Assembly (NCBI GenBank): GCA_963701295.1
Contig: OY969585.1
Coordinates: 1,056,001 to 1,120,000, forward strand
Source of the DNA: Ignavibacteriota bacterium
GTDB lineage: Bacteria; Bacteroidota; Ignavibacteria; UBA10030
Length of the DNA stretch: 64,000 nt
Direction: 5' to 3'
Of this stretch, positions 31,849 through 38,530 are shown piece after piece (position 1 is the first letter of the stretch; every line of letters starts with the position of its first letter). A program made the translations under genes and the position numbers. The notes beneath the pieces are model-generated. The model was not told where the DNA came from. It saw only the letters and a list, made by a program, of their open reading frames with translations, and did no database searches.

Positions 31849-32613
31849 CTATTCACAGATTGAACCGAGTTCGAGGAGAAGGGGCACATTTTTCTGTCTA
31901 AGCTGTGCTATCGGCATTTCATCGAAGGTTCTTCCGGAGAGTTCACGGCCGGCTGCTTTTTTGCGGACACCGCCCCACTGCTTGAAAAAGAATGGGATAT
32001 TCATTTCACGGCAGCGGCGTTTAATCTGTGTTATCCAATCACGCTCCATCGGACGCGCACCCGGGCCTGATTCGCCGCCGACGATAACCCAATCGATTCC
32101 TCTCAGCGGAAGTTTTGAGATAGGACCAAGCAATGGCTCTAAGGAAAGAAATCGAACAGCAGCAGGTACTTTGACCAGTTCATGGATCCGGTCTGTATAT
32201 TTTTGAGATTCGACACTCACGCCCATCCAGACATTTTCAGGCCATGGAAGAAAAGGTGCTATGTGCACTAACCGATCCGATCTTTTTGTAAGTATCTGGA
32301 ATGTGTGCCAATATGCGCGCCTCATGGTATCAAAGACTTTTACGATAAAATCGCAAGGAACATCTTTATGCAATAAATCGCTCATGGAATTGACAAAAAT
32401 GACGCGCGGTTGTTTCCATTCGAGCGGCAATTCGACGATGTCTTCCTGAAGAGTTACCTTAAATCCATTTCGATAGCGCTGTGATCCCATTGCTTGAAGT
32501 CGCATAGCCATACGCTCGGCATAGCAGTTCTTGCAGCCCGGACTGATTTTGCTGCAGCCAGTTACCGGGTTCCAGGTGGATTCTGTCCATTCGATACTAG
32601 AATTTTGCGACAT
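31849..32613 (-). CDS. DUF5131 (phage Gp37/Gp68-like, radical-SAM-like three-Cys) protein
   Basis: [67 protein letters not shown]. Confidence 0.93.
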
Positions 32614-32618
32614 ATCTT

Positions 32619-33818
32619 TTATCGTTTTACGAGTTTAACAAATTTTTCATCGGAAATTCGAACAGAACCATTTTCAGTAATAAGATCACCTGTTTCAAGC
32701 AACTTTTTAATAGCTTCATTGTACTCACTTTTTGTAAACCGAGCAAATTGAGACTCAATAAATCGCTTTCGAAGTTCTGGCCTCTTCATCTGAATACTAT
32801 AAGGATTATCTTCAGACTTGCATCGCTCATTTGCTATTCGAAATGCCTCTTGCAACATAAGTTGAGGTAAAGCCTCAATATCAGGTTGCATGCCACTATA
32901 AAGAAATTCAGATGGTTCATTGTTCTCAAACAATGTGTCTACATTCTTGCATCTGATTTCTTCAAGCATTAATTCTCTCTTTGCTTTAATCATGACATCG
33001 TTCATTATTTCTATTGCAATTTGACTTTGAGAAGCAAAAATCAGAAAATATTTTACTTCTTCCCCCTTTAACCCAGTAGTCACAGGAAGAACACCTAACC
33101 ATTGAAAGATTTCTCGAAAAGATTCCAGATATTTTGATTGAATAATTTGTGGTTTATCATCGTCTGGAATTGATTCTGAATTCATAATATCTAACCACCA
33201 ATTTCCACCTAATGAATCTGTTACAATAGATGTAATTGTTTCAGCCTGTTTACGTAATGTGTCATTTTTAGAATGTAAGTTTTTACAAATTCCTGTAAGT
33301 CTTGGTATAGCTCGGTGGTTAAAATTGATCAGAAGTTCTGTACTTCCTTTCTTTGCCCGTTGAAACACTTGTAATAGCAGCCTCATCGATAATCCTTTTA
33401 TTCCAAAAGGATCTAAGAACATAAATAGAGGTATTTGCTGAGGCAAATTTTTTAATAGAAACAGTCCAACATCTGCAGCTTCACCCGGTATAACATTGAC
33501 TATTCCTTGATCAATAAATTCATGAAGATTGTTCTTCAATTGTTCTCGATCTTCATCATTAATCTCCGCTAAAACAACACGATTATTAAAGCCTAGCTTC
33601 TGTCGATAAATACGTGCAAGATTGGCGATGATCATTGGAGAACCATCGGAACCATCGTCGAACTTCCCCTTGCCGGCAAATAAGTCAGCAACTATTGCTG
33701 GAGATCTATATTTTTGATTAACTTTTGGAAAATATTCTAAGAGGTAGTTTTTAAGAATCTTGTACTTTATGAGAGACCAAGAACGCGGCCGTTCAAAAAA
33801 AGAGTCTGATGTAATCAT
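32619..33818 (-). CDS. tcmP: Three-Cys-motif partner protein (TcmP; SAM-MTase fold, possible C-terminal wHTH)
   Basis: WS..K..IL..Y, DLFAGKG...GSP, FLDPFG, TELLINF, Y.LIFAS; 5 nt from DUF5131; visibly AT-rich. Confidence 0.82.
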
Positions 33819-33941: not shown

Positions 33942-34373
33942 TCATCCTGGTCGTTTCTTCTTCCCGCAATCAATACAATATCCTTTATGAACACAAATTG
34001 TACCTCCACATTGAGAGCAAGTCCATTTTACATCTTCATTCTTTAAAAATTTTCTAATACCGAGATTTTTAATATTTTCAAGATTTTCAATCATGCTCAT
34101 ATCGTATTTGGTTCGGTATCTTGTATCCAGATGCTTCAAATTGTCGCAGGGGAAATTACTGCATTCAAAACAAAATTTTGCTCTTCCGGTTCGAAAATTT
34201 GTGCAGTTCTTGATTTTACATCGAACACGGGTAACCGGTTTATTCGCGTTCGCTCCTCTGCAGCCGGGACATTTATTTTTCTCTCTCAGATAAGCCATGC
34301 AAATGCCGCAGTTCATTCCGCAAGGAGCTATAAGAGAAAACTTATTCAAGGATTCCATTTTCTCCTTTTTCAC
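33942..34373 (-). CDS. DUF3795 Cys-rich (Fe-S/Zn) protein
   Basis: APCG.NC..C, CPGC, C.IKNC, C.EC..FPC, CSQCG...C..CG; GTGA overlap with the repressor stop. Confidence 0.8.
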   Translation of the reverse strand: MKKEKMESLNKFSLIAPCGMNCGICMAYLREKNKCPGCRGANANKPVTRVRCKIKNCTNFRTGRAKFCFECSNFPCDNLKHLDTRYRTKYDMSMIENLENIKNLGIRKFLKNEDVKWTCSQCGGTICVHKGYCIDCGKKKRPG

Positions 34374-35020
34374 ACACTCTTAATCACTTTTATAACGCGC
34401 CACATGAAAGTCACATCTTTCTTGTGTACCGCCATTGGTTCGTATTCGGGATTGAGTGGAATCAAGTGTACAAATTGTTCGTCAATTTTTATCCGTTTTA
34501 CAGTATCCTCTTCATCCACGCGCACCACGCAGATGTCGCCGCTTCGCACTTCTAATTTTGGCGTTACCACAATGATGTCGCCGTTCTCGATGCGGGGCGC
34601 CATGCTGTTTCCCTTTACTTCGAGTGCGAACGCATTTGGGTCGCGCACATTGTCCACCGTGATGTATCGCTCTGCCTGATCGGAATGAAACCGCTGGCTC
34701 AATGCACCGGCCGGCACCGATGCAAGCAAGGGAAGCGAAACGAGTTCTACTTTTTTATAACGGTTTGTTGGCAATGGTATGACCTTGGATTTGTGCTGTT
34801 CAGCAGGAACCATCTCTCCTTCACCGCTCAGCAGCCAATGAGCCGCGACTCCGGTCGCTTTGGCAATGCGCATGAGATAATTACTGTCGGGCACCTGATC
34901 GCCTTTTTCCCATCGCTGAACAGTGCGTGTAGCAATATCGATCTTTGCGGCAAGATCAGCCTGGTCAAATTGTTTTAACAACCGCGCTTCGCGGATACGT
35001 TGTGCAATTGTAGGTTTCAT
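34370..35020 (-). CDS. XRE-HTH plus S24 peptidase self-cleaving repressor (LexA/CI-like)
   Basis: RIREAR...DQADLA..I.IATRTVQRWEKG..VP HTH; Ala-Gly cleavage site VPAG; catalytic Ser GNSM and Lys TVKR; GGAGA SD 6 nt before ATG 35020. Confidence 0.92.
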   Translation of the reverse strand: MKPTIAQRIREARLLKQFDQADLAAKIDIATRTVQRWEKGDQVPDSNYLMRIAKATGVAAHWLLSGEGEMVPAEQHKSKVIPLPTNRYKKVELVSLPLLASVPAGALSQRFHSDQAERYITVDNVRDPNAFALEVKGNSMAPRIENGDIIVVTPKLEVRSGDICVVRVDEEDTVKRIKIDEQFVHLIPLNPEYEPMAVHKKDVTFMWRVIKVIKSV

Positions 35021-35033
35021 AAGCATTCTCCAA

Positions 35034-35049
35034 ACGACATAAATGTCAT
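35034..35049. promoter_or_regulatory. Putative repressor operator 1 (ACGACA-TAAA-TGTCAT)
   Basis: Near-perfect 6-4-6 palindrome over the predicted transcription start of the repressor gene. Confidence 0.75.
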
Positions 35050-35053
35050 AACC

Positions 35054-35083
35054 AAAATAATGCTTTTTATCCCATATTGTCAA
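35054..35083 (-). promoter_or_regulatory. Sigma70-type promoter for the repressor operon
   Basis: TTGACA (35083-35078), 18 nt spacer, TATTTT (35059-35054). Confidence 0.55.
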
Positions 35084-35134
35084 TAGCTTTATAATAGAGC
35101 AGAAAACAACAGCGGGCTGTGCTGGAATCACTTC

Positions 35135-35163
35135 TTGACAAGACGACAAAAATGTCGTATTGT
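35135..35163 (+). promoter_or_regulatory. Sigma70-type promoter of the iRadA-PolB operon with operator 2 in its spacer
   Basis: TTGACA (35135-35140), 17 nt spacer, TATTGT (35158-35163); perfect palindrome ACGACA-AAAA-TGTCGT at 35143-35158. Confidence 0.8.
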
Positions 35164-35174
35164 CTTATAAATAC

Positions 35175-35966
35175 ATGAGCAAGATAATCAACATAATACC
35201 CGCTGCGCGCCAACGCCGGTACCCCGCTCCGCCGCCAACCGTGGACCTGCATGATAGTGCGATTCCCATTCGCTCTGAACGGATGATTCATGCCTTTGCA
35301 AACAAACCGGGCAAGGTATTTCTGTTGTACGGCGAGCGGGCTATTTTTCAGTTGTCGCTTCAGATGGCCGCGCATACGATGGTTCAGGGAAATCCTATTG
35401 CCGTTGTAGACGGCTGCAACCGTTTCGATGTGCACGCGCTTTCACGATTTGCCCGCGTGCGGAAAATCGATCCGAACAAATTTCTCAATCATATTTTTAT
35501 CTCGCGCGGCTTCACGTGTTATCAAATGGAACAGGCAATTGCGCACAAACTGCCGGCGTTTCTTGCAACCATCCATTCGAACACTGCACTGGTTTTTGGA
35601 CTGCTTGATACCTTCTACGACGAACAAGCATCTCTGCGTGAGGTGCAGCAGATTCTTCAGAGACTGCTCGGCTCGTTTCAAGAAATGAAATCGAAAGGAG
35701 TCTCGCTCTTGCTGGTGTGTTTAGAAAGGACCGTCGCGCCGCAGGAACGCAATCAGTTGTTTACGACATTAAAGAATGGCGTCGACCGTGTGTACAAACT
35801 CGATATCAATGAACGCGGTACACTTCAGCTCTATTTAGAATCTCAACAGCCTGTGCACGAACAAATAAAAGGAGCATTGAATTATGGGACGAACCGTACC
35901 CACCTTCACCAACCTGATCGATGCGGAACTGGCAAGCTGGTCAAAATTCCGCCGCGGACTGCGTAA
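35175..35966 (+). CDS. Inactivated RecA/RadA-superfamily protein (ImuA-analogous iRadA)
   Basis: Walker A degenerate (LYGERAIF, no GKT); VVDGCNRFD, IFISRGFTCYQM, LLDTFYDE segments typical of RadA-like folds. Confidence 0.75.
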   Translation: MSKIINIIPAARQRRYPAPPPTVDLHDSAIPIRSERMIHAFANKPGKVFLLYGERAIFQLSLQMAAHTMVQGNPIAVVDGCNRFDVHALSRFARVRKIDPNKFLNHIFISRGFTCYQMEQAIAHKLPAFLATIHSNTALVFGLLDTFYDEQASLREVQQILQRLLGSFQEMKSKGVSLLLVCLERTVAPQERNQLFTTLKNGVDRVYKLDINERGTLQLYLESQQPVHEQIKGALNYGTNRTHLHQPDRCGTGKLVKIPPRTA

Positions 35967-36138
35967 AGACGATCAGGAAGTTTTCGACGAAATTTTCCGC
36001 GCCGCAAAACTGCACCTGGCAGAAAATTTTTATGCGATGCGGGCTGTTCCGTTCGAAAGCATGATGATGTCGATTGTCGTGGAACAGCAGAAAGCGATTC
36101 GAAGATTGGAAGAAGAAGGAAAGAAAATAAGAAGTTGA
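35884..36138 (+). CDS. Small helical PolB2-associated protein (arCOG07300-like)
   Basis: MGRTVPTF...W.KFRRGLRK.DQ..FD.IF..A..H...PFE.MMMSI; AAAGGAG SD upstream; lies between iRadA and PolB. Confidence 0.75.
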   Translation: MGRTVPTFTNLIDAELASWSKFRRGLRKDDQEVFDEIFRAAKLHLAENFYAMRAVPFESMMMSIVVEQQKAIRRLEEEGKKIRS

Positions 36139-36250
36139 GTAGATGAGTCTATGAGCAATTTAGCCAATGAGCCGTTGAGCCTATAAGTAGTTGAGCATGA
36201 AAAAAATCAGTTTTCAATCTGAAATCTCCAATCTAAAATCTCCAATCTCT
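36135..36250 (+). repeat. Eight degenerate octamers (WTGAGY..) followed by five AATCT.. heptamers
   Basis: 36135-36198 TTGAGTAG ATGAGTCT ATGAGCAA TTTAGCCA ATGAGCCG TTGAGCCT ATAAGTAG TTGAGCAT; 36216-36250 AATCTGA AATCTCC AATCTAA AATCTCC AATCTCT. Confidence 0.75.
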
Positions 36251-38530
36251 GCCTGGCTGTTCGATGTGTATCCGTCTGAACGCGGCGTCACACTCTGGTT
36301 TATCGGCCGGAACGGTGTACGGCTGCGCTGTTTCCGCACTTTTACGCCGTCATTCTTTCTTCATTTGAATAATTCCGACGCCAAACGTGCGGCGGTTCTT
36401 GCCGACCGGTGCCCTGTTCCGATTTCGCTTTCTCCTACGATGCGCACGGAAATTTACTCCGGCGATTCCATCAATGTGCTGCAAGTCTTTGTTCATGATC
36501 CGATGCGGTTCAAGGAAGTTGTATGGTACTTCGAGAAATTTTTTCCACATTTTGCATTTTTCAATTCTGATGTTTCCGTAGAACAGCAATTTCTGTATGA
36601 AACGCAGTTGTTTCCGCTGGCACTTGGCGAGTATGAGGTCGGTAAGGAAGGTGAACTTCTCTCCTGGCATCTCAATGACAACCGTGAAGCGCCGGAATAT
36701 GAACTGCCGCCGTTTTCCATTATGCAGCTTCGCAACAGCAATGATTTCGTGCCGCCGAAGTACCAGAAGTTTCTGCAGTTAGAGATCAGTTACGAAAACC
36801 GTACGTATGCTTTAGAACAGGATTCACCGCGCGAACTGCTCGAAGCGTTCAACTGGCATCTTCATCATTATGATCCCGACTTGCTTGTTACCGATTACGG
36901 CGATGCGGTTCTTCTTCCGAAGATCCTACAGCTTTCCAAACAGTTCAACATTCCTTTGCTTCTCAATCGAGACGCCGAGGCACAGCACCGCACGACGAAG
37001 GAATCAAGTTTCTTTCAGTACGGAAAAATTGTCCACAAAGATGGTGCATTCACGCTCGCGGGGCGCTGGCATGTCGATGCGAACAATTCTTTTACCGTGA
37101 GCGAAGCTGATCTCGACGGATTATTTGAGATGACGCGTCTGACACAAATGTGCGGACAGCGGCAAGGACGCGCGAGCATCGGCACGTCAATGTCATCGAT
37201 GCAGCTTTCGTGGGCGTACCGCAATAATGTGCTTATTCCGTCGAAGAAACGTGAACCGGAGGAGTTCAAGTCAGCCGCAACACTGCTGCTTGCCGACCGC
37301 GGCGGACTTATTTTTAATCCTCCGCTTGGGTACCACGAAGATGTTGCGGAACTCGATTTCGTCTCGATGTACCCAAGCATTATGGTGAACAACAATGTCT
37401 CGCCGGAGACGGTGAACTGCCGATGCTGCCATAATGAAACAGTGCCAGAACTTGGATATACGATCTGCGAGAAGCGTAAAGGTGTGGTTCCGGAAACACT
37501 TCGCGCTGTTGTCGCCAAACGTGCGTATTACAAACGGATGAAAAAAAAATTCAAGGGAAAAGATGAAGTGCTTTTTAAGCGGTACGATTGCCGGCAAAGT
37601 GCGCTCAAGTGGATGCTGGTAAGCTGCTTCGGCTATCTTGGCTACAAGAACGCCCGCTTCGGACGCATCGAGGCACACGAATCGGTCAATGCCTTTTCGC
37701 GGGATGCCATTCTCACTGCAAAAGAAATTGCCGAGAGCCGCGGCTACAAGCTTCTCCATGCTATTATCGATTGTGTGTGGCTGAAAAAGCCCGGCGCGAC
37801 ACAGGACGATTACGAAGAACTTGCACATGAAATTTCCACACGTGTCGGTATCGATATTTCGCTGGAAGGCATGTACAACTGGATTCTTTTTCCCTCATCC
37901 AAAACAGATCCGCAGATTACTACCGCAAATCACTATGTGGGATGGTACCGGCATGGTGACATCAAAATGCGCGGTATCGAGGCGCGGCGGCGCGATACGC
38001 CGAAATTTATTAAAAACATGCAGAAAGCAATGCTGGATAAAATGTCCGCCGCAAAGAATGTCGAGGAAGTATCGACACTCGTGCCGGAAGTATTGGAGAT
38101 CGCACGGGGCTTCATGGTACTCCTCCAAAGTGGACGTGCAAACCCGATGGAGCTTGTTCTCAAGCGCCACATCACGCGCGAGGCCGATGAATATCTTAAT
38201 AACAGCATCAATGCGGTTGTTTCCAAGATGGTAGAAGAAATGGGAGTACACCTCTCGGCAGGCGAGTCGATCGAGTTCATTATTCTCGATCAATCTGGCA
38301 AGAAAAAGCCCGAAAGAGCTAAACCTCTTGCTCTCTATGCTTTCGAGGACGGCTACGATATTGAGCAGTATACCGAGCTTGCTTTACGGGCTGTGGAAAC
38401 GCTTCTCCTTCCCTTTGGCTACGATGTACAACAGTTGAAAACGCATTTTAGAATCGGTATGCCAAAACAAAAGCGTCTGCAGGTACCCCAAAAAAGTCAG
38501 GAACTTCCATTGTTCCAAATCCAGATCTAA
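36197..38530 (+). CDS. Family B DNA polymerase, PolB2/Dpo2-like, exonuclease-degenerate
   Basis: Motif A DFVSMYPS; motif B RQSALKWMLVSCFGY; motif C HAIIDC instead of YGDTDS; CRCC..C insert; KMRGIE.RRRD; no recognisable ExoI DxE; C-terminal QELPLF. Confidence 0.9.
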   Translation: MKKISFQSEISNLKSPISAWLFDVYPSERGVTLWFIGRNGVRLRCFRTFTPSFFLHLNNSDAKRAAVLADRCPVPISLSPTMRTEIYSGDSINVLQVFVHDPMRFKEVVWYFEKFFPHFAFFNSDVSVEQQFLYETQLFPLALGEYEVGKEGELLSWHLNDNREAPEYELPPFSIMQLRNSNDFVPPKYQKFLQLEISYENRTYALEQDSPRELLEAFNWHLHHYDPDLLVTDYGDAVLLPKILQLSKQFNIPLLLNRDAEAQHRTTKESSFFQYGKIVHKDGAFTLAGRWHVDANNSFTVSEADLDGLFEMTRLTQMCGQRQGRASIGTSMSSMQLSWAYRNNVLIPSKKREPEEFKSAATLLLADRGGLIFNPPLGYHEDVAELDFVSMYPSIMVNNNVSPETVNCRCCHNETVPELGYTICEKRKGVVPETLRAVVAKRAYYKRMKKKFKGKDEVLFKRYDCRQSALKWMLVSCFGYLGYKNARFGRIEAHESVNAFSRDAILTAKEIAESRGYKLLHAIIDCVWLKKPGATQDDYEELAHEISTRVGIDISLEGMYNWILFPSSKTDPQITTANHYVGWYRHGDIKMRGIEARRRDTPKFIKNMQKAMLDKMSAAKNVEEVSTLVPEVLEIARGFMVLLQSGRANPMELVLKRHITREADEYLNNSINAVVSKMVEEMGVHLSAGESIEFIILDQSGKKKPERAKPLALYAFEDGYDIEQYTELALRAVETLLLPFGYDVQQLKTHFRIGMPKQKRLQVPQKSQELPLFQIQI

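Follow-up and report, generated by a model that had tools for sequence, protein, structure and literature searches.

A phage-type S24 repressor and a palindromic box as the predicted switch of a PolB2 polymerase operon in an Ignavibacteriota bacterium

We describe here a stretch of 64,000 nucleotides (nt) from an Ignavibacteriota bacterium (the window: positions 1,056,001 to 1,120,000 of contig OY969585.1, assembly GCA_963701295.1), in which the gene for a repressor with an S24 peptidase domain is divergent from a three-gene operon coding for iRadA, PPB2 and the B-family DNA polymerase PolB2. From comparative analysis of the sequence, we think it quite probable that this repressor, the sole S24 protein of its genome, switches the operon by binding two CGACA-W4-TGTCG boxes, and that its cleavage after DNA damage induces a translesion complex. 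The iRadA-PPB2-PolB2 operon itself is not new: it has already been published, is of archaeal origin, and the copy studied here is a bacterial example of it; what is new is the type of regulator and the predicted box. The host genome is a single contig of 3.64 Mb (99% complete), and the four open reading frames (ORFs) lie where the initial annotation had placed them, at 34370 to 38530 of the window, with domains and strands that bear out its description of an S24 repressor divergent from a three-gene operon. The features on which the argument turns are as follows:

34370 to 35020, minus strand: phage-CI-type repressor (HTH_3 and Peptidase_S24 by Pfam), about 216 amino acids (aa)
35034 to 35049: predicted operator O2, ACGACA-TAAA-TGTCAT, one mismatch, between the repressor -10 and start codon
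35054 to 35083, minus strand: putative repressor promoter, sigma-70-like (TTGACA, 18 nt, TATTTT), consensus match only
35135 to 35163, plus strand: putative PolB2 operon promoter, sigma-70-like (TTGACA, 17 nt, TATTGT), consensus match, layout recurring in relatives
35143 to 35158: predicted operator O1, ACGACA-AAAA-TGTCGT, a perfect palindrome filling the -35/-10 spacer of the operon
35175 to 35966, plus strand: iRadA, RadA fold without Walker A (profile match)
35884 to 36138, plus strand: PPB2 (arCOG07300), 84 aa, with an N-terminal MGRT arm
36197 to 38530, plus strand: PolB2 (B-family group G2), 777 aa, with a degenerate proofreading site

The palindromes O1 and O2, which were absent from the initial annotation, are predicted to be operators by their sequence. 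O1 is the sole perfect ACGACA-N4-TGTCGT of the whole genome, in which the core GACA-W4-TGTC occurs five times: as O1, as O2, twice inside ORFs and once about 320 nt upstream of a tRNA-Ser gene, there with no promoter layout. For comparison we used a sample of 61 genomes (the host included), the related loci being titled as Ignavibacteriae or Bacteroidota metagenome-assembled genomes. There are 70 GACA-W4-TGTC sites in 64 related loci versus 0 to 2 in ten resamplings, and the 14-nt box pattern is present in 56 of the 61 genomes, in most of them well above a reversed-pattern control. The plain pattern precedes 46 of 54 PolB2 operon heads, and in 45 of these 46 the box stands exactly two bases after a TTGAC[ATC] hexamer, i.e. 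in the promoter spacer. Eight heads are unboxed: three are led by canonical (winged-helix) LexA, namely those of genomes G040 and G058 and the second copy of G011 (counted here because it carries PF01726), and five others lie at most 2.4 kb from a contig end. Six further loci led by winged-helix LexA likewise have no box, and at G058 a CTGT-N8-ACAG element, also seen at several canonical lexA promoters, stands in its place.

The box also accompanies the repressor gene. Of 30 repressor genes, 24 (the host's own among them) have it at a distance of at most 350 nt upstream, and the remaining six at 0.5 to 2.8 kb, in several cases beyond an inserted gene; all seven of the further unlinked repressor genes have a site as well. 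With the weight matrix, about 0.1% of genome windows score as high. In relatives of the same genus (L031-L034, L117, L121, L124), small genes (DUF559, for example) are inserted between the boxes and the repressor or iRadA, which suggests that the controlled promoters act as landing sites. We dismissed the sites that lie inside ORFs, among them one that recurs in the coding part of the repressor gene itself, as well as three box-like sites of G010 (L122, L140, L141). The latter belong to a hairpin element of about 130 nt, repeated between genes, in which such a palindrome occurs by chance.

The repressor most likely starts at its second Met, 6 nt past a GGAGA site, most homologues being 216 aa long; residues are numbered here from position 35026. 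Its N-terminus matches the phage 434 repressor (HTH_3 / Phage_CI_repr domain), and A106-G107, S141 and K177 align with the cleavage site and catalytic dyad of Escherichia coli LexA, in agreement with the proposal that it is of the cleavable XRE-S24 type. The N-terminal domain of canonical LexA (PF01726) is not matched, either by this protein or anywhere else in the host genome, and the LexA model TIGR00498 scores 67 bits against a cut-off of 111; by its sequence, the regulator is a phage-CI-type protein and not a winged-helix LexA. An orthologue with at least 51% identity is present in single copy in 48 of the 61 genomes, all 16 orthologues compared share the recognition-helix residues (R34, T35, Q37, R38, W39, E40) and the dyad, and outside the order none of 134 class-level genomes has a match at E 1e-30. 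The context is not that of a prophage CI: there are no adjoining phage genes, the gene is single-copy across the order, and the best phage match has 33% identity. The repressor is flanked by glycosyltransferase-like and arginine-biosynthesis-like genes (judged from translations), and no integrase or phage gene was recognised between 22 and 47 kb of the window. Since, in addition, a quick tree of PolB2 mostly follows families (with the exception of G040), we dropped a mobile or prophage origin of the host copy, and the locus looks resident in the lineage and not like an island acquired recently.

The initial annotation considered the cassette self-contained, with its own repressor. This stands locally, the host genome coding for no second S24 protein such as UmuD; it does not stand in general, since the repressor divergently adjoins the operon in only 24 of the 48 genomes that have it, keeping its own box elsewhere. 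PolB2 itself has a strong match in 50 of 61 genomes, and the three operon genes occur together in most relatives, as anticipated. Where the operon is split, PolB2 stands alone with its own box (G018, G023, G026, G028), and the iRadA-PPB2 half has a box in three genomes (G021, G023, G028); in G018 it has no more than a weak site, 1.3 kb upstream, and in G026 no site up to 1.7 kb away. The comparison thus likely describes a minimal, order-wide SOS regulon and not a strictly self-contained cassette.

That the regulon is minimal follows from the predicted sites: in the host genome neither recA, nor uvrA, nor the Y-family polymerase gene has a box. The core was found upstream of recA in 0 of 21 cases (about 4 kb in 20 relatives, plus the host recA region) and upstream of uvrA in only one of 30 loci, and in the host there is none at the DUF72 genes either. 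A global SOS regulon, with recA and core repair genes as under canonical LexA, was therefore rejected, as only two of the five host cores (O1 and O2) qualify. In other genomes, additional genes lie behind the box: Pol IV in G038, G039, G047 and G051, DUF72 and SplB-like (PA0069/Rv2578c) radical SAM genes in other families, and, directly after the box in five relatives, the pair TcmP-DUF5131 (G029, G035, G036) or DUF5131 alone (G023, G056). We lean, with moderate confidence, towards a broader reading in which the whole order lacks a canonical LexA regulon and a domesticated phage-type repressor with CGACA-W4-TGTCG serves as its SOS switch, the PolB2 mutasome being the constant target and Pol IV, DUF72, SplB-like and TcmP-DUF5131 genes being recruited lineage by lineage. 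If this is true, an SOS response would have arisen independently here and would be seen at its minimal stage, and TcmP-DUF5131 would have a role in DNA damage.

The target of this predicted switch is a B-family polymerase of group G2, as defined in passages of Kazlauskas 2020 (PMC7544198). PolB2 matches Pfam DNA_pol_B (E 1e-35), its best NCBIfam match is the archaeal type-B model PRK05761 (393 bits, versus only 54 bits for the Pol II model), and its nearest solved relatives, by sequence and by fold, are Thermococcales PolB. In a quick tree of 18 proteins (with long branches and built without a PolB3 outgroup), it joins, with an SH-aLRT of 99, haloarchaeal plasmid PolB having iRadA/PPB2 partner genes, and E. 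coli Pol II and halovirus PolB fall elsewhere, so that the clade expected for it was recovered. With E. coli Pol II (group G1) it shares 20% identity over 271 aa (42 bits), and it has neither the YGDTDS motif C nor the active exonuclease of that enzyme. The following elements of the protein recur below:

37265 to 37276, plus strand: FKSA, residues 357-360, FxxA motif of the RadA/Rad51 type, placed by the model in the groove of iRadA
37757 to 37774, plus strand: motif C, HAIIDC, first Asp substituted (alignment)
38498 to 38515, plus strand: QELPLF, C-terminal, likely beta-clamp-binding motif (a loose pattern matched 16 of 47 rows; compare the published QLxLF)

Motif A (ELDFVSMYP) and motif B are intact and motif C is altered, H[AG]I[IV]D[CS] being found in 47 of 47 aligned rows, and a conserved DR (residues 367-368, the D(K/R) motif) follows FKSA in all 47. 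The position of the ExoII Asp is taken by Leu239 in the alignment and the presumed ExoI strand (residues 175-180 in the model) has no D or E, so that, judging from the alignment, the proofreading active site is lost, as the lack of recognisable motifs had indicated. The CxCC..C stretch had been taken for an insert; it aligns to its Thermococcales PolB equivalent with one single-residue gap and is therefore a normal feature of the palm region. The description of PolB2 as error-prone has to be qualified: according to the abstract of PMC8764526, Sulfolobus Dpo2, once purified, is accurate on undamaged DNA and works as an extender at mismatches and lesions.

The two partner genes were also correctly identified as an inactivated RadA and arCOG07300. 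The iRadA profile matches Pyrococcus RadA (E 6e-6) and has GERAIFQ, with no GKT, at the position of the P-loop, and the PPB2 profile picks out the haloarchaeal partner gene (E 6e-20, among five proteins tested); gene order, MGRT arm and loss of the ATPase site are all as described for this operon type. The 3' end of iRadA overlaps PPB2 by 83 nt (35884-35966) in another frame; this overlap recurs in many relatives, and no slippery site was noticed in it by eye. Structure prediction, which had been suggested as a check, gave the PolB2-iRadA pair a score of 0.80 versus 0.00 for the best of three controls, with a contact agreement between runs of at least 95% and a partner pLDDT of 84 (the mark used is attained by 116 of 157 solved complexes and two of 215 mismatched pairs). 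The modelled interface consists of PolB2 residues 350-364, around F357, which is invariant in 47 of 47 rows, and supports the binding of PolB2 to iRadA through a RadA-type oligomerisation motif.

We propose that a repressor dimer binds both boxes and silences the operon and its own gene, acting in trans where the genes are apart, as comparative genomics suggests. From what is known of S24 proteins, RecA filaments would trigger self-cleavage at Ala106-Gly107 by Ser141/Lys177. PolB2 would then dock its FKSA on iRadA, as modelled, take up a PPB2 trimer, as in the published models, and bind the beta clamp through the predicted QELPLF motif. By analogy with archaeal Dpo2, the polymerase, having lost its proofreading, would extend primers whose ends are mispaired or lie opposite a lesion, a Y-family enzyme probably having acted first as inserter; the presence of Pol IV genes in boxed operons agrees with such an inserter-extender pairing. 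The outcome would be damage tolerance and targeted mutagenesis.

The imuA-imuB-dnaE2 and umuDC systems are SOS-type translesion polymerase systems. By analogy, the present system would work like them, with an SOS-type switch controlling a translesion polymerase that has several subunits, among them a partner with a recombinase fold; it differs from them in that the catalytic subunit is unrelated and the host has one DnaE, one Y-family gene and no second S24 gene. A comparison of the PolB2 complex with Pol V is made in passages of PMC11791011.

Several observations weigh against the proposed scheme. The relatives are kin and not independent samples, the weight matrix was trained on PolB2 loci, the five unboxed heads near contig ends have no canonical LexA, and G032 and G035 have repressor and box with no PolB2 or PPB2 match. 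The NCBIfam scores of PolB2 fall below the family cut-offs, and the modelled PolB2-iRadA interface looks like solved Rad51/RadA FxxA interfaces, so that the good score of the model may be due to this likeness. In addition, two boxes accompany the PolB2 operon of G043 (100% complete, in 60 contigs), a genome in which we could find no repressor orthologue (a weak S24 match is not one), as would be expected if the palindrome were bound by another transcription factor, the operon being damage-related and the S24 gene merely one more target. We think this unlikely, because the box accompanies the repressor gene even when unlinked and is gone where canonical LexA leads the operon, because G040 and G058 lack both the orthologue and the operon box, and because S24 repressors typically autoregulate. 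Finally, the scissile site is Gly-Gly instead of Ala-Gly in nine of 16 repressor orthologues (a literature search on whether such a site can be cleaved returned nothing relevant). Together with the recA genes without a box, this could mean that the repressor binds the box and has lost RecA cleavability in much of the lineage, the operon answering another signal or being held low; we consider this somewhat less likely still, given that none of the 16 orthologues departs from S141, K177 or G107, that the host copy has Ala-Gly, and that RecA is present in the host (as a single gene) and in 30 of 31 genomes. As for the idea that bacterial PolB2 is not a mutagenic polymerase but has little or no activity and serves as a scaffold where forks stall or repair gaps are filled (the first Asp of motif C is substituted in 47 of 47 rows, passages of Makarova 2014, PMC4104785, read the family as 'inactivated', and we found no assayed bacterial member in the literature), this seems to us very improbable, since Asp387 (motif A), Lys471 (motif B) and Asp525 are invariant in the aligned rows and Sulfolobus Dpo2 is active despite the same motif-C substitution (passages of PMC11791011 and PMC8764526).

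Control by the phage-type repressor, which we prefer, has to be set beside what is in print. The initial annotation stated that related bacterial operons had been noted bioinformatically, and indeed passages of Timinskas 2025 (PMC11791011) describe bacterial iRadA-PPB2-PolB2 operons with their gene order, the MGRT arm, a modelled heteropentamer with a PPB2 trimer, clamp motifs, and the enrichment of lexA, SRAP and DUF72 near these operons; lexA in bacterial PolB2 operons is also mentioned in passages of Makarova 2014. Our locus resembles this published mutasome in gene order, MGRT arm, motif C with IID, D(K/R) motif and dead exonuclease, and, as far as models and predictions go, in the RadA-type motif binding iRadA and the C-terminal clamp motif. 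Among the catalogue rows of PMC11791011 that we could consult, some are from Ignavibacteriota, with HAIIDCVWL and the same gene order, and one of them is, by eye, nearly letter-identical from motif B to motif C. There are three differences: the LexA neighbour in the portions of that survey available is a winged-helix protein (PF01726 and PF00717) whereas here it is HTH_3 and S24; an operator is absent from the passages of the published PolB2 accounts whereas here a box is predicted; and the order studied here includes split operons in which PolB2 has a box of its own.

On the side of the regulator, passages of Sanchez-Osuna 2021 (PMC8565304) describe non-canonical, phage-like SOS repressors of Bacteroidetes, which share with ours a CI-like N-terminus with S24, autoregulation, control of translesion polymerases and no need for a canonical LexA. 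Compared by description, their operators (GGA-N5-TCC or CTAA-N5-TTAG) differ from the conserved GACA-W4-TGTC found here. Minimal S24 regulons offer further analogues, namely Francisella FddR (passages of PMC13148647), HdiR and UmuDAb (both via passages of PMC8565304); the FddR box, however, is GTG-N11-CAC, and the target here is an archaeal-type B-family complex. DdiA of Myxococcus was rejected as an analogue, being an activator with no mention of S24 and no cleavage seen. A Leptospira lexA paper contains no 'polB'. Leptospira phages do carry the genes: in KF114878.1 (an LE1-like phage record; L346:3222-6982), an iRadA-like gene, an MGRT frame unannotated as such, PolB2 and an SRAP-like gene lie in this order, and three further Leptospira phage records carry PolB2.

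Regulation of this operon by a phage-type repressor and a box was not found in print, as far as the passages of PMC11791011 and PMC8565304 go; spellings of the box motif led to unrelated papers only, and the supplements of PMC8565304 and the remaining catalogue rows of PMC11791011 could bear on novelty. Experimental work on bacterial PolB2 was not found in the literature searched, mostly outside subscription journals and including passages of PMC12926913. The lone RNA run shared 5% of its words with the host and yielded contigs only of relatives, at 95% identity or less. A defined, if predicted, repressor-operator pair makes the damage induction of a bacterial PolB2 directly testable without culturing the host, and would add a further case of a phage-type repressor assuming SOS duties.

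The locus also points to three unstudied families as candidate damage-response genes, which trail the repressor on the same strand:

33942 to 34373, minus strand: DUF3795 Cys-rich protein, its start overlapping the repressor stop
31849 to 33818, minus strand: TcmP-DUF5131 pair lying past the repressor gene, both candidate members of the regulon

DUF3795 is likely co-transcribed with the repressor, given this overlap, and DUF3795 and DUF5131 hold the same place in most of the genus. We therefore list DUF3795, TcmP and DUF5131 as candidate DNA-damage genes on the strength of their position; DUF5131 sits also in two PolB2 cassettes with canonical LexA (L060, L085), and no literature pairing 'DUF5131' with 'DNA damage' was found.

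A few minor observations may be added. A short remnant of the PolB2 C-terminus (57-69% identity) lies elsewhere in the genome at G000:C1:789148-789355, with like remnants in G004 and G010, and several relatives (L350-L353) code for another, distantly related B-family polymerase (about 770-790 aa), on a long branch of its own, which does not match the motif-C pattern. In G004 (L118:550-1530), a perfect box lies in the TTGACA promoter of a protein of 326 aa that is matched by neither Pfam nor NCBIfam, and in G002 (L148:1949-1995) a TTGACA promoter and two boxes, separated by 31 nt, stand beside an IS1-like transposase and an HTH_17 gene.

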